Part shown: positions 60,260-64,000 of the stretch, in pieces
Numbering within the stretch: position 1 is the first letter of the stretch
Layout: every line of letters begins with the position of its first letter
Source: an uncultured Desulfobacter sp.
Lineage (GTDB): Bacteria > Desulfobacterota > Desulfobacteria > Desulfobacterales > Desulfobacteraceae
Direction of reading: 5' to 3'
Assembly (NCBI GenBank): GCA_963665095.1
Contig: OY762069.1
Coordinates: forward strand, 384,001 to 448,000
DNA: 64,000 bases
Made by a program: the position numbers and the translations under genes
The notes under the pieces: model-generated
What the model was told of the DNA's origin: nothing
Database searches by the model: none
Seen by the model: the letters and a program-made list of their open reading frames with translations, nothing else

Positions 60260-60803
60260 TCAATCTGAACGTATCCGTAAAAATGAGGGGAATTTGGGAA
60301 TTTTGTTTTTCGTAAAACCGTAATATTTAAAAGTAACCTGGGTGCCAACGGGCGGCGGATTCTGCCTGTTTTGTTCAGTGAAGCCTGTGCCCAGTTTGAA
60401 TTGAATGCCATTTTCAAGCCGGATGGTCAGGGAGCCCATTACCCCGGCAAATTTTCCTTTTCCTGGATTGATGGCAATGACTTCTCCTTCCATATCCCGG
60501 GTCTCCTTTATTTTGAGGACATATGGGCTTCGTCCCGTATGGTAGGCTTTTTGGGGATCCTTAACAATAACCCCTTCTCCGCTTCGGGATGCCACCTGCT
60601 TAATAAACTCATCAAGATCAGGCAGGTCGCCAATCAGGGTTTGGTGGATGATGTGTACGAATGGGTCGGGGTGGGCGGCAAACCAACGCGTTGCTTTTTC
60701 CAGGCGCTGGAAGAAATCGCCCTTTTGGTTGGGAACTTCAAAAATATTGTAGGTGATTTTTTCCCAACCTTTTCCCGGGTGCCGGTCAAGAACCACAGAC
60801 TGG
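60260..60803 (-). pseudogene. ATP-dependent DNA ligase (minimal LigE-like), 3' fragment
   Basis: GEGVIVK, Y..GRS..LK.K and OB-fold FKLGTGF...FPSFLRIR; 5' part cut off by the transposon. Confidence 0.9.
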
Positions 60804-60882
60804 TGTTGAGTCGCATTTTATCCTGACTTAAATTTTCTAATTATTTTGAACAGATTAAATCTTTTCCATATTATTTAAGACA

Positions 60883-61065
60883 GCTACAGAAGTCGCTGCG
60901 CTCCTTCTCAGTAGGTTTTTAAGGCATAGGCAGAACAGCTTGAATAAAGCAGAAAGGGGAAGCAGGTAATCCCCACTTCCCCTGGCGCATTATTCAATGC
61001 TGCCTGCTTCCGGCTATCCCTTACCAGGTTGCTCCTCAGCAGAGCCCGGCTCCGTTTCACCGAAA
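60883..61065 (-). ncRNA. candidate structured RNA/DNA region inside the transposon's 3' end
   Basis: Non-coding, GC-richer than its flanks, several adjacent hairpins; strand assumed from transposon transcription; no family assigned. Confidence 0.35.
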
Positions 61066-61096
61066 TCGTAATATTCTGCTCTATGGCTGTTTTTTC

Positions 61097-61906
61097 TTAA
61101 AAAATTTCCGATGAAGCAATGCGGACATGCTCTGCAGATACCGTCATTGATTTTTCTGCCGCAGCAGCAATCAATGAGCCTCTGGCAAGATTATTCGCCT
61201 TTCGTAAAAGGCCGCCGGAGCCTTGATGAATCGCAGTCACCGCCTGGTCAGAAAAAAAGTTGGTGTCAACACCGCATAGTTTTAAATGATGGATCAGGTA
61301 AGTTTTCATTCCAGCCACATCCAGACCATCCAGATGGCTTTTAGCCACAATCCTGGATGCAAACGGGATTGACGTCCGGTACTGAAGCTTATCTATCAAT
61401 GTCGGCTGACCTGCAAGGATCACAGGCAGCCAGGGCATGGCGTCTTTTTCAAATTGAACCAGGGTGTGAAGTTCGGCAAAGACTTCCATGCGAAGCAGAG
61501 ATGCCTCATCTATAATCAAAACGGTTTTGATCTTTTTTCCCAGGACGAATTCACGTATTTCATTTTTAATAATGGAGATCATAACAGCGCGGGACGTCGA
61601 TGTCCGCTCTATGCCCAGTTCTTCAACAATCTGCCGGTAAAGTTCCATGATGGAACCGCTTGAGGCCGTAACATAAAAGACTTTGTATTCCGAAGGGTGT
61701 AGGGATGAGGCGGCATACCTTAAGGCGGTGGACTTTCCGCTGCCCACATCCCCTGTGATAACCGCACTGCAGCCAAGTCTTAAGGAATAATCAATCCGAT
61801 TTTTAACGCCCGAGACCTCCGGGGTGACCAGGATATCATTGATTTCTATCTGCGCCGGGAAGGCCTCCCTATATAAGCCAAAAAAGGTACGATACATTTC
61901 ACTCAT
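61097..61906 (-). CDS. ExeA-like AAA+ ATPase (transposition helper; TnsC/MuB/IstB analogue)
   Basis: Walker A GDVGSGKS, Walker B LIIDEA, ILAGQP; ATGA overlap with the transposase. Confidence 0.92.
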   Translation of the reverse strand: MSEMYRTFFGLYREAFPAQIEINDILVTPEVSGVKNRIDYSLRLGCSAVITGDVGSGKSTALRYAASSLHPSEYKVFYVTASSGSIMELYRQIVEELGIERTSTSRAVMISIIKNEIREFVLGKKIKTVLIIDEASLLRMEVFAELHTLVQFEKDAMPWLPVILAGQPTLIDKLQYRTSIPFASRIVAKSHLDGLDVAGMKTYLIHHLKLCGVDTNFFSDQAVTAIHQGSGGLLRKANNLARGSLIAAAAEKSMTVSAEHVRIASSEIF

Positions 61907-63159
61907 AACAGTTGCCCTCCCTTGTAATTTGAGGGTTCAGGCATAATCCGGATATCATTTTCGTTCCAGCGGTGCCGCTTGACCCGACAGTTCACAGCAA
62001 GGTCCACCGGGGTTAACAAGCCATAAGACTTTGCTTTATAGATAACTTCAGCCTGCAAAGGGGTGTCCTCATGGTACTTTACATCCACATGTCTGCCGAT
62101 CAGCGCAACCGGGGCCTCAAACATGTTGCCGTCAAGGGTGATGGTTCGGTCCTTTGCCACCTTGCGCCGGGCGGTTTTGCGGAAGTGGTCTTTCAGATCC
62201 GGTGGGGCGGTACGGATGCACTCCATGGCCGAGGTAAATCTTTTAAACGGTGATTCGCCTGTGGAGCTGTGTTTACGCTGATGGTACTCATTATGAAGCC
62301 ACTTCTCAAATGCCCCATTCAGATCATCCAGGGTCTTACCTGTAAATCTTTGCAGAAACTGAAGCCGAACCGTTCTGAACCAGCGCTCGATTTTACCTTT
62401 CCCCTGGGGCTTATATGGCCTTGCATGGATTAAAGCGATGGACAGAGACGCTGCTACATATTTTAAATGATGGGATCTGAACGCAGGACCGTTATCTACA
62501 TACAGCTTGCGGGGAAGCCCACGGCTCAAAAAAGCCTGCTCCAGCACCATAAGATAGGTCTTCAGATTCTCAGATAAATAAAAACCTGCAGCCGTAACCA
62601 GCCTGGAATGATCGTCCATAATGGCAATCAGGTACGTTTTTCTTTGCTTATCCTGAACCAGGACTGTAGGGCCGTGCATGACGTCGCTTTGCCACATATC
62701 ATTGGGGTGCGGGGCTTCAAACTTTCTTCTATCCTCTGGCCGGGCCGTGTTCATTAGCCCCCGGCCGCGTAAAAAACGGTATACACTGGATGGACTGTAT
62801 GTCTGGCATGTAGTTTTTTGAAGTGAACAGATCAATGTATCGACTGTCGCATCAGGCTGGTCTAACCGGAGTTTGATTAGTTGAGATGCAGTCTCGTCAT
62901 CGAATACCCTTGATTTTCCCTGGTCTGAACGGTCTTTGGGGTAAAGAGACTCTATTCGACCGTTATACTGCCGGACCCATCCCAGAATCGTACTTCTGGA
63001 AAGCCTGGTCCTTCCAGAATACGGGATGGACCATTTGCGGGCGCACTTCTGCTGTAAAATTCGTTCTTTTTCACCGTAATCAAAATTTGTTCCGGTCACA
63101 AATTCACAAATGACCCCAAACCTGAACACGGCAACCTCTTTTTTCTGATTTTCTGTCAT
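61903..63159 (-). CDS. DDE transposase (rve core, Mu-transposase-like C-terminus)
   Basis: N-terminal HTHs; WQSD, YVDNG and KGKIER (D,D,E); R.V.KD.TI.L.G..FE C-terminal barrel. Confidence 0.95.
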   Translation of the reverse strand: MTENQKKEVAVFRFGVICEFVTGTNFDYGEKERILQQKCARKWSIPYSGRTRLSRSTILGWVRQYNGRIESLYPKDRSDQGKSRVFDDETASQLIKLRLDQPDATVDTLICSLQKTTCQTYSPSSVYRFLRGRGLMNTARPEDRRKFEAPHPNDMWQSDVMHGPTVLVQDKQRKTYLIAIMDDHSRLVTAAGFYLSENLKTYLMVLEQAFLSRGLPRKLYVDNGPAFRSHHLKYVAASLSIALIHARPYKPQGKGKIERWFRTVRLQFLQRFTGKTLDDLNGAFEKWLHNEYHQRKHSSTGESPFKRFTSAMECIRTAPPDLKDHFRKTARRKVAKDRTITLDGNMFEAPVALIGRHVDVKYHEDTPLQAEVIYKAKSYGLLTPVDLAVNCRVKRHRWNENDIRIMPEPSNYKGGQLL

Positions 63160-63262
63160 ACTTCCTCCTTAAAATTTGGTTCTAAGGGCTTGTATGACAG
63201 TATGATCCTTCGGTAAATCACAGCCTTCGGTAGGGTGGTTTAAACCTGATCCAGCCCCATGG

Positions 63263-63709
63263 TTAAATTGAACTGGTAACCGGGATTTTACCCATACCGA
63301 TTAGCTTGATAAAACCAGCAACCACACCTTTGTCCCAACTGTTGGACAGGTAGGCCGCTATATTTCGTTTCAATGCAGTAAACCAAAAATGCTGTCGACT
63401 CCAGGAGAGTTCCGGCAGATACCGGTCTGTGTATAGACGACTCATAATGCTGGTAAGGATTTGCCAGATACTGGCCTGGAACCTCTTGAAAAAACCATAT
63501 GGCTTCAATTTGAATACGGTTTTGCAATAGGGGCAGCGATATCGCTTCAAATACACCCCTTGATCAAATCCATCAAAAAAGGAGAGTACAAAGCCGTGTC
63601 CCCACAGCCTGGAGTCGTTGCAATGTGGACATCGTGACGGTTTTGGCCATGTAAAATTTTTGCCCTGCTTGAAAATTTGCTTGATATCAGCTTTGACCTT
63701 TATTATCAT
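63263..63709 (-). CDS. small Zn-ribbon protein carried by the transposon (DUF6431-like)
   Basis: CPHC...HG...RYRCPYC followed by a helical region; first gene of the element. Confidence 0.8.
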   Translation of the reverse strand: MIIKVKADIKQIFKQGKNFTWPKPSRCPHCNDSRLWGHGFVLSFFDGFDQGVYLKRYRCPYCKTVFKLKPYGFFKRFQASIWQILTSIMSRLYTDRYLPELSWSRQHFWFTALKRNIAAYLSNSWDKGVVAGFIKLIGMGKIPVTSSI

Positions 63710-63901
63710 TTTTATGGTTGTTTTGGGATTTTATAAATCCCGGTCTTAAGGGCGAGGCTCTGCAAAGCTTTTCGCCCTTTTCATTTTTGTCAGAATGCTT
63801 TGATCAGAACCTGTACAGGATAATTTGAGAAAAATGGAACTTTGTCAATTTAATATGAAAAATTTGGCGGGTTTTTGTTCAGATTATTTCGGGAATCTAC
63901 A

Positions 63902-64000
63902 CTGGATATATTCATACTCCCCACGGCCACTCCACAGTTCTCCGTCCAGTTCAAAGGAGGGAAAATTTTTTATAAACCATGCTGGGGGATGCAGTACCAC
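63902..64000 (-). pseudogene. ATP-dependent DNA ligase, 5' fragment (runs off the window)
   Basis: Minus strand reads VVLHPPAWFIKNFPSFELDGELW.GRGEYEYIQ, including ligase motif III LDGEL. Confidence 0.9.

Follow-up and report, generated by a model that had tools for sequence, protein, structure and literature searches.

A recently active Tn6049-like transposon with a third, zinc-ribbon gene and a structured element also found with unrelated insertion sequences

Introduction

What kind of transposon encodes a DDE transposase, an AAA+ ATPase and a small zinc-ribbon protein in only 3.1 kb, and what might the third protein do? The question is raised by an element, here called element A, in a 64,000-nucleotide stretch of DNA (the window) from an uncultured Desulfobacter sp. 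(assembly GCA_963665095.1, contig OY762069.1, positions 384,001 to 448,000 of the forward strand). A previous annotation without database searches (the sequence-only reading) had described it as a three-component Mu/Tn7-like system in which the small protein could be a target-selection or regulatory subunit. The analysis presented here indicates that element A is probably best explained as an active transposon of insertion sequence (IS) size from the Tn6049-like group, in which a Mu/Tn7-type pair is joined by an obligatory helper, ORF1. New here, and not what a specialist would expect, are a structured non-coding element behind the ATPase gene and, in relatives, a small protein with a tail like that of single-stranded DNA-binding protein (SSB).

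Results and discussion

Boundaries and recent movement of element A

Element A interrupts a ligase gene, and its limits were defined by the following features.

60804..63901, minus strand: whole element A, 3098 bp, TGT...ACA ends (boundaries shared by 14 copies; runs X5 and X6 have the empty site)
60800..60803, plus strand: target-site duplication CTGG, copy 1 (read in the sequence; ligase frame and empty site agree)
63902..63905, plus strand: target-site duplication CTGG, copy 2 (read in the sequence; ligase frame and empty site agree)
60260..60803, minus strand: 3' part of the interrupted ATP-dependent DNA ligase gene (DNA_ligase_OB_2, E 1e-27; frame restored)

The end sequences are TGTTGAGTC at 60804 and GAATCTACA at 63901, and the 5' part of the ligase gene occupies 63902-64000 and runs on past the window edge. 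The genome to which the window belongs (G000) contains 14 copies of element A, and since all of them end at identical bases, the boundaries are not due to chance. Thirteen copies are 3098 bp long with identities of 99.58-100%, and the remaining one (L185, G000:C1:1967081-1971497) is split by a 1.3-kb insert near its left end. The duplication is variable in length, with 4 bp at six copies, 5 bp at seven and none at one. Excision of the element and one CTGG restores a 325-codon ATP-dependent DNA ligase frame, and both duplication lengths are real because excising one copy restores long host frames in each class. Furthermore, contigs of two samples from two studies (runs X5 and X6) contain the empty site, in which 60798 is joined to 63901 and 3102 bases (3098 + 4) are skipped, and they also carry element A at different flanks, which together show that the element moved recently. 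It is concluded that element A is a real, recently active transposon. The exact ends, the CTGG duplication, the three intact co-oriented open reading frames (ORFs) and their ATGA overlap, as described in the sequence-only reading, were all confirmed.

Thirteen of the 14 copies are simple insertions with intact duplications. The only copy that lacks a duplication (G000:C1:6279076-6282173) abuts a reverse-transcriptase-like frame, and an adjacent deletion possibly took place there. Two loose ends in the X5/X6 contigs belong to variant copies: at window position 63375 the left end and part of ORF1 are joined to other DNA, and at 61089 the ATPase is followed by a different 3' region.

A Mu/Tn7-like transposase and ATPase

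The three ORFs of element A are intact and all lie on the minus strand.

63263..63709, minus strand: ORF1, 148 aa, zinc ribbon (C27, C30, C59, C62) followed by a helix-turn-helix (HTH)-like helical part, DUF6431-like (homologues and structure model)
61903..63159, minus strand: DDE transposase, 418 aa (D159, D222, E258), N-terminal HTH, Mu-type C-terminal domain (rve, HTH_32, Mu-transpos_C_2)
61097..61906, minus strand: AAA+ ATPase, 269 aa, ExeA/AAA_22 type, MuB/TnsC-like (domain matches; profile and fold)

The frames of the transposase and the ATPase overlap by ATGA. The catalytic triad D159/D222/E258 is invariant across 51 transposase sequences. When compared with NCBIfam, the transposase matched an IS481 model best (E 1e-61), at 208.7 bits narrowly under the cut-off of 224, and it reached 63.9 bits against the IS21 model, for which the cut-off is 160. 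Profile comparison with the PDB placed TnsB of ShCAST first (E 3e-24), followed by IstA of IS5376, an IS21 member (5e-16). In the ATPase, the Walker A (G52-K58) and Walker B (D133-E134) motifs are intact, and R185 and R235 are invariant. Among solved structures, MuB came first by profile (E 6e-18; then Cdc6 with 5e-7 and TnsC with 3e-6) and also by fold (TM 0.70, with TnsC at rank 9 and TM 0.74). With IstB, 47 columns around Walker A align and nothing more, and the IstB-type profile PF01695 did not match the ATPase at E<=0.1. No match to the ATPase was present among 50,697 phage records. A MuB/TnsC-clade ATPase thus stands beside a MuA/TnsB-like transposase, and the Mu/Tn7-like catalytic pair of the sequence-only reading holds, with MuB nearest to the ATPase and TnsC well behind, and TnsB, then IstA, nearest to the transposase.

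Three host ATPases in the same genome (G000:C1:3435323-3436117, 4599096-4599749 and 5528829-5529560) are akin to that of the element (22-27% identity). No transposase match lies alongside them, and they are probably ordinary ExeA-type genes.

Element ends and promoter-like sites

Repeats were located at both ends of the element, and a promoter-like site lies within the left one.

63814..63901, minus strand: left end, TGT and three imperfect 18-bp repeats (L1-L3) at element positions 7, 41 and 71 (matrix)
60804..60880, plus strand: right end, TGT and repeats at element positions 7, 30 and 60 (the second alone scores well here)
63820..63848, minus strand: promoter-like site TTGACA-17-AATTAT, overlapping L2 and L3 (consensus match only, 10/12)

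A matrix derived from the right ends of relatives (33 sites) gave L1, L2 and L3 scores of 7.4, 9.2 and 7.0 bits, and the right-end repeat at position 30 a score of 23.7 bits. On the right ends of 38 relatives the matrix peaks at positions 7 (13 elements), 30 (35) and 60 (14). The termini of relatives read TGT[T/A]GA and are followed by three imperfect 18-bp repeats per end; by eye, the repeat spacing in their left ends is the same, and plasmid-borne relatives from Bacillota, Pseudomonadota and Actinomycetota have TGT...ACA ends too. L1-L3 are regarded as putative transposase sites. Nine promoter-like sites were found in total, against 4.4 ± 2.0 expected, and the overlap of one of them with L2 and L3 suggests autoregulation. 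On the plus strand, two such sites (63681-63709 and 60846-60874, consensus matches only) would yield RNA antisense to the ORF1 leader and to the structured element, respectively.

Relationship to Tn6049 and other transposons

Tn6049 of Cupriavidus metallidurans CH34 was described as a 3.5-kb element with 12 copies and a GspA-like ATPase gene; in the text available of that report neither a zinc-ribbon gene nor a mechanism is mentioned (PMC2864759). An element of about 3517 bp was found in CH34, with a single copy on each of pMOL28 and pMOL30 and three copies on the second chromosome, and because this distribution fits the Tn6049 table in the available text of PMC2864759, it was identified as Tn6049 in this analysis. 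The three profiles (ORF1, transposase and ATPase) matched its proteins with E 2e-14, 6e-102 and 2e-58. The gene order is that of element A (zinc-ribbon gene, 'IS481 family' transposase, AAA ATPase with a GTGA overlap) and the ends are likewise TGT...ACA, the two copies read having duplications of 5 and 6 bp. The two elements differ in that Tn6049 has a small acidic ORF4 ending in DNDF, which element A lacks, and lacks the structured element, which element A has. Their transposases are 28% and their ATPases 25% identical, and the likeness of ORF1 is detectable by profile alone. Judged by gene order and by TGT...ACA ends with a short variable duplication, element A is a distant member of the Tn6049-like group (DUF6431 - DDE - AAA+).

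The three-gene arrangement is thus already named and the group is widespread, although it is mechanistically unstudied in the literature searched. The sequence-only reading knew of no mechanistic study, and none of the gene trio or the structured element was found in that literature, which did not include ISfinder, TnCentral and subscription papers, where either is possibly catalogued.

G000 harbors a second such element, element B, of 3541 bp in 13 copies (G000:C1:1262587-1266127, L184, and 12 more), with the same gene order, a small fourth ORF and TGAG...CTCA ends. Its duplications are unusually variable (3-7 bp; 6 bp in 5/13 by exact-match count) and its transposase is 49% identical to that of Tn6049 in CH34. 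One copy (L017, G000:C1:3464861-3468401) lies within a spacer of a CRISPR-like repeat array.

With phage Mu, element A shares an ATPase closest to MuB among solved structures, a Mu-type C-terminal domain, several binding repeats per end and the absence of a fixed target site; unlike Mu it is not a phage, is 3.1 kb long, makes 4-5-bp duplications and has an extra zinc-ribbon gene. With Tn7-like elements and CRISPR-associated transposons (CAST) it shares TGT/ACA ends (available text of PMC11406308); its transposase profile lies nearest to ShCAST TnsB, and TnsC ranks high among the ATPase matches. However, TniQ is named as the defining component of Tn7-like elements in the accessible part of PMC10293859, and in element A no profile match to TniQ/TnsD or TnsA was found, nor an att site, orientation control or a constant 5-bp duplication. 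Like IS21, element A is IS-sized, its DDE gene overlaps an AAA+ gene, and its ends carry several direct repeats and a terminal CA, as in the definition of IS21, for which multi-repeat ends and no strong target specificity are described in the text available of PMC10122671. It differs from IS21 by an ATPase that is not IstB, an upstream third gene that is always present and three repeats per end; as the ATPase is not of the IstB type and the IstA cut-off is not reached, it is not an IS21 member. IS481 provides the best NCBIfam model and has TGT/ACA termini as well, but element A scores below the model cut-off and carries two conserved partner genes. Element A therefore fits neither IS21 nor the one-gene IS481, and the proposal of a three-component system outside the standard IS families stands. 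TnRErm46 is an element of another kind, with a single transposase (available text of PMC6794481).

ORF1 is a conserved part of the element

Relatives were collected as 111 transposase-anchored loci (5 plasmid, 26 genome and 80 metagenome). ORF1 could be assessed in 87 of these, which include the start of the transposase gene and 650 bases or more upstream of it, and a relative of ORF1 was found in all 87, from at least four phyla. It was detected by profile in 78 loci and by eye in nine, including one cut by a contig end, one with an internal stop and one without an in-frame first cysteine pair. The ATPase follows the transposase in 95 of the 96 loci with room for it, and the three-gene synteny thus recurs across the anchored loci. 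Pairwise divergence of ORF1 tracks that of the transposase and the ATPase (Spearman 0.81 and 0.77 for 73 elements, values that kinship inflates), and dN/dS was 0.06-0.09 for the four of eight ORF1 pairs with measurable dS. C27, C30, C59 and C62 are invariant across 40 homologues. ORF1 is thus a fixed part of the element under purifying selection, and the case that would have undermined the sequence-only reading, absence of ORF1 from most homologues, was not encountered.

The PF20020 (DUF6431) profile matched 19 of 36 aligned ORF1 relatives at E<=0.5 (best 2e-27), ORF1 scored 0.96-0.97 in the Atlas to clusters with 41-90% DUF6431, and relatives on Geobacillus and Acidithiobacillus plasmids are called DUF6431 by NCBI. 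On these matches the ORF1 family is assigned to DUF6431. The structure model of ORF1 (pLDDT 92.9) consists of a zinc ribbon followed by four helices. Its fold shows weak likeness to NrdR zinc ribbons and to Myb, LuxR and sigma-4 HTH domains (Z 3.3-3.8), HTH_23 matches four of 36 family members, and Foldseek with the model returned nothing at E<=0.001. The InsA protein of IS1, which has a zinc ribbon and an HTH, binds the IS1 ends and regulates transposition, has the same two-part layout as the ORF1 model, although the profile similarity is marginal and ORF1 is a separate gene beside an unrelated transposase.

Target sites

The 14 insertion sites of element A are mutually unrelated, and no 5-, 6- or 7-mer at a fixed distance within 200 bases was shared by them more than by random sites. 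The target consensus that was to be looked for according to the sequence-only reading did not emerge as a fixed-distance motif. An orientation bias relative to replication, with the origin estimated from GC skew, was not significant (10/14 lagging for A, p 0.18; 18/27 for A and B). TG/CA steps occur in 12 of 13 duplications against 6.1 expected (p 0.0008) and ATG/CAT in seven against 1.2 expected, both patterns having been picked after seeing the data. Element A has a weak local TG/CA preference and no att-site selection. In the absence of an att site and a fixed-distance motif, a TniQ-like site selector is not supported.

Possible role of ORF1

ORF1 is probably a helper at the ends or the promoter of the element, and this is likelier than a TniQ-like cap. 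ORF1 could alternatively be a minimal, sequence-independent analogue of TniQ, which starts or caps ATPase filaments on target DNA, or directs them to structures such as forks or to other mobile DNA, without a fixed att site. It is a small, zinc-binding and invariant partner of a TnsC/MuB-like ATPase, type V-K TniQ retains only a helical domain and a zinc finger (accessible part of PMC10293859), and three of 14 A copies lie in other mobile genes and two of 13 B copies in another transposase gene (frames by eye). Against this, the TniQ profile PF06527 matched none of the three ORFs at E<=0.1, the order in ORF1 is zinc ribbon then helices where the TniQ core, in the same source, starts with the helical domain, and the duplication length is variable at sites with neither a shared motif nor a significant orientation bias; such a role is considered unlikely. 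No TniQ chain was among the best 50 fold matches of ORF1, which excludes nothing, and a complex prediction of transposase, ATPase and ORF1 scored 0.00 and weighs neither way. That ORF1 is a passenger in an ordinary two-gene IS21/IS481-like sequence would agree with the NCBI tag 'IS481 family transposase' on relatives and with ends that recall the multi-repeat ends of IS21, but it is very hard to reconcile with the presence of ORF1 in 87/87 loci of at least four phyla under purifying selection and with an ATPase that is not IstB, and it is regarded as highly improbable. Of the two roles offered in the sequence-only reading, that of a target selector is thus disfavored and that of a regulatory subunit is the likelier one.

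Several observations weigh against an active three-component element with ORF1 as a helper. The anchored loci are kin, most with 53-88% transposase identity, so that the counts overstate independence. PF20020 did not match the ORF1 of the window itself, the fold matches of ORF1 are at background level (best Z 4.0), and the InsA Pfam model matched just two of 36 members (E 0.076). A loose target rule would be hard to see with 14 sites, and several copies lie inside other mobile genes. Neither the loci nor the contigs of four runs contained an end-to-end circle junction, contigs being prone to drop rare forms.

By analogy with Mu, Tn7 and IS21, the transposase would bind the end repeats, pair the ends and nick at the terminal CA, and the ATPase would load on target DNA without a specific site and activate strand transfer. 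ORF1 would be an obligatory DNA-binding helper with a zinc ribbon and an HTH, most likely acting at the element's own ends or promoter, and would govern expression or the assembly of paired ends, not the choice of an att site. As neither a TnsA-like nuclease nor a resolvase is encoded, host replication or repair machinery would have to finish the reaction, leaving simple insertions. More speculatively, the slot behind the ATPase may hold optional aids for this final step, namely a protein with an SSB-like tail in relatives and, here, the structured element including the operon terminator.

Element A is very small (3.1 kb) and active, and combines a TnsB/MuA-like transposase with a TnsC/MuB-like ATPase. 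By profile, the third protein is not a TniQ or a TnsA. The element may serve as a simple system for what such an ATPase needs without a site selector, and as a useful outgroup for the Mu-Tn7-CAST lineage.

A structured element behind the ATPase gene

The region between the ATPase gene and the right end contains the following features.

60909..61068, minus strand: structured non-coding element, 160 nt (fold z -3.98; covariation; model match of 130.6 bits, the window sequence having been in the training set)
61010-61062, minus strand: 5' domain, a 9x9 internal loop flanked by two covarying stems, with a small hairpin as cap (covariation)
60955..60983, minus strand: intrinsic-terminator-like hairpin inside the long hairpin, 12 pairs then a T-rich tail
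60914-60927, minus strand: 3' box ATGCCT-NN(N)-AAAA (not in the search pattern)
60893..60903, minus strand: GAGCGCAGCGA box 3' of the structured element (GCG[A/C/T]AGCG)

The structured element thus consists of the 5' domain, a long variable hairpin and the 3' box. In this region elements A and B share about 190 non-coding bases with 80% identity, despite transposases that are 28% identical, and in G000 all 27 matches to the structured element, out of 150 candidates scored, belong to A or B. Comparison with the 4227 models of Rfam gave no relevant match for it (the window produced one chance-level hit, E 0.39), and 15 further structured-element loci gave none at E<=1.

A pattern scan of GTDB genomes returned at least 113 loci, from Planctomycetota, Desulfobacterota, Acidobacteriota, Bacteroidota, Chloroflexota and others; about 20 positions were set by the pattern and are invariant by construction. 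The 3' box follows in 81 of 113 loci among the matches listed, and GCG[A/C/T]AGCG is found in 16 of 67 distinct 3' flanks against 0.18 in shuffles (related sequences). Flanking proteins were read from 114 ORFs at 94 distinct loci, about one third of which had just 300 bases of flank. They included the element-A ATPase family (12 loci), IS3-type (8), IS110 (7), ISL3 (7) and IS21 (3) proteins and single cases of IS200, DDE_Tnp_1, TnpB, an integrase and a maturase; some loci had host genes only. Comparison of multi-copy elements placed the structured element inside the boundaries of IS3, ISL3, IS110 and three-gene elements, in either orientation. No full match was found among 72,556 plasmids, no match in viral contigs, and none in Tn6049 or five plasmid-borne three-gene elements. 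The structured element is a strongly conserved module, absent from Rfam and common to unrelated IS families, and appears to be uncatalogued.

For the structure, the window sequence was aligned with 49 of 53 distinct full-length copies (four longer than 200 bases were left out). The three stems are paired in 98%, 100% and 95%, with 117 two-sided changes against 29 in shuffles, a lenient control since the structure was drawn from the same, related sequences. The outer long stem is predicted in 44 of 50 sequences and runs past the nested terminator. A protein-coding explanation was rejected, as upstream frames of at least 50 codons occur in 14, 10 and 10 of 71 by frame and 1-nt insertions are present. 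Pairing of AGGGATAG with the ATGCCT box, as a pseudoknot or long-range interaction, was rejected for now (no covariation, predicted in 9/50).

Variants and partial forms were seen at several loci. Two loci (L299 and L287) have a variant 3' of the ATPase that keeps the small capped hairpin with a different internal loop and 3' box. At L083, L127, L163, L169 and L175 the structured element adjoins ISL3-like ends with no transposase in the flank available, which suggests carriers resembling miniature inverted-repeat transposable elements, and L120 and L142 share a 497-bp gene-less unit. IS110 transposase genes converge on a truncated structured element at L079, L081, L082, L091 and L111, as if IS110 elements inserted into its long hairpin. 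On a Tateyamaria plasmid (L301:2001-2037), the AAAATCC plus GGGGTCTGGGGCAGAGCCCC hairpin stands alone between genes.

A fourth gene in relatives and possible links to replication

Of 69 distinct elements, 39 have a small ORF of about 55 aa (ORF4) 3' of the ATPase. The 43 ORFs of this kind include 27 with a terminal acidic tract and F and 15 with a terminal PF, compared with 106 and 14 of 4206 long genome frames. Two end in DDIPF, where the host SSB ends in DDDIPF, and an acidic tract with (I)PF at the extreme C-terminus is the hallmark of SSB tails. These tails recruit PriA, RecG, chi and other proteins. ORF4 comprises at least two helical families without a Pfam name, and in several relatives the structured element has replaced the ORF4 tail. 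The two features hint at a putative coupling to host replication. In L133, the fourth-gene slot after the ATPase is occupied by a Walker-A-containing, RepA/helicase-like frame (by eye).

For the structured element itself, a function as RNA stands at about an even chance: it may be a stabilized 3' end or processed small RNA (sRNA) of the operon, or an independent sRNA, with a terminator, insulator or protein-binding role unrelated to replication. The compensatory changes in three stems with frequent G-U pairs, the purine-rich tetraloops and nested terminator, and about 80% identity where synonymous sites are saturated all agree with this, as does the strand asymmetry. Under RNA energies the motif strand folds better than its complement (z -3.87 vs -2.79; 21 of 25 sequences), which is not the case under DNA energies (-3.25 vs -3.29; both for 25 of the 50 sequences). 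On the other side, a terminator inside the long stem would remove the 3' arm and the 3' box unless read through, the element is antisense to the transposase in some IS3, IS110 and IS21 elements, and no promoter of its own was found. It is also possible, though distinctly less probable, that the structured element is a single-strand priming signal (sso/ssi-like DNA, or a template for primer RNA) that unrelated IS acquired for replicating single-stranded or circular intermediates. Like ssoA of rolling-circle plasmids, it has a long imperfect hairpin with an ATGCC..AAAA box and, close by, a [T/C]AGCGA box: the 3' box, frequent though absent from the search pattern, resembles RSB TTTATGCCGAGAAAA, and a TAGCGA-like CS-6 box is often next (available text of PMC6395029 and PMC8860593). 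The outer stem that extends past the nested terminator suits DNA, the structured element lies within IS3, ISL3 and IS110 boundaries, and the SSB-tail peptide occupies the same slot in relatives. However, according to these sources a single sso hairpin carries RSB at the base of its stem and CS-6 in its loop, and the look-alike boxes are here both 3' of the hairpin; the structured element further differs from ssoA by a conserved 5' domain and by its occurrence in insertion sequences, not beside plasmid rep genes. The lack of a full plasmid match and of any viral one, an orientation that varies relative to the carrier, and the G-U tolerance and RNA-energy asymmetry speak against priming as well. 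The structured element may help its carriers to get copied.

A broader proposal combines these features: Tn6049-like elements would be Mu-type transposons with their own means of engaging the replisome. Behind the ATPase this would be either a peptide that mimics the SSB tail or a structured priming element, and the priming element would be traded among IS3, ISL3, IS110, IS21 and three-gene elements to prime replication of intermediates. As a whole this is doubtful, and slightly more so than priming by itself. Neither feature is required: element A has no ORF4, the structured element is confined to 12 of 61 relatives with three genes, and both an F-tailed ORF4 and the structured element are missing from 32 of 69 elements. 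If the structured element did prime DNA synthesis and the DDIPF peptide did recruit SSB partners, the handover of replicative or copy-out elements to host replication would become directly testable.

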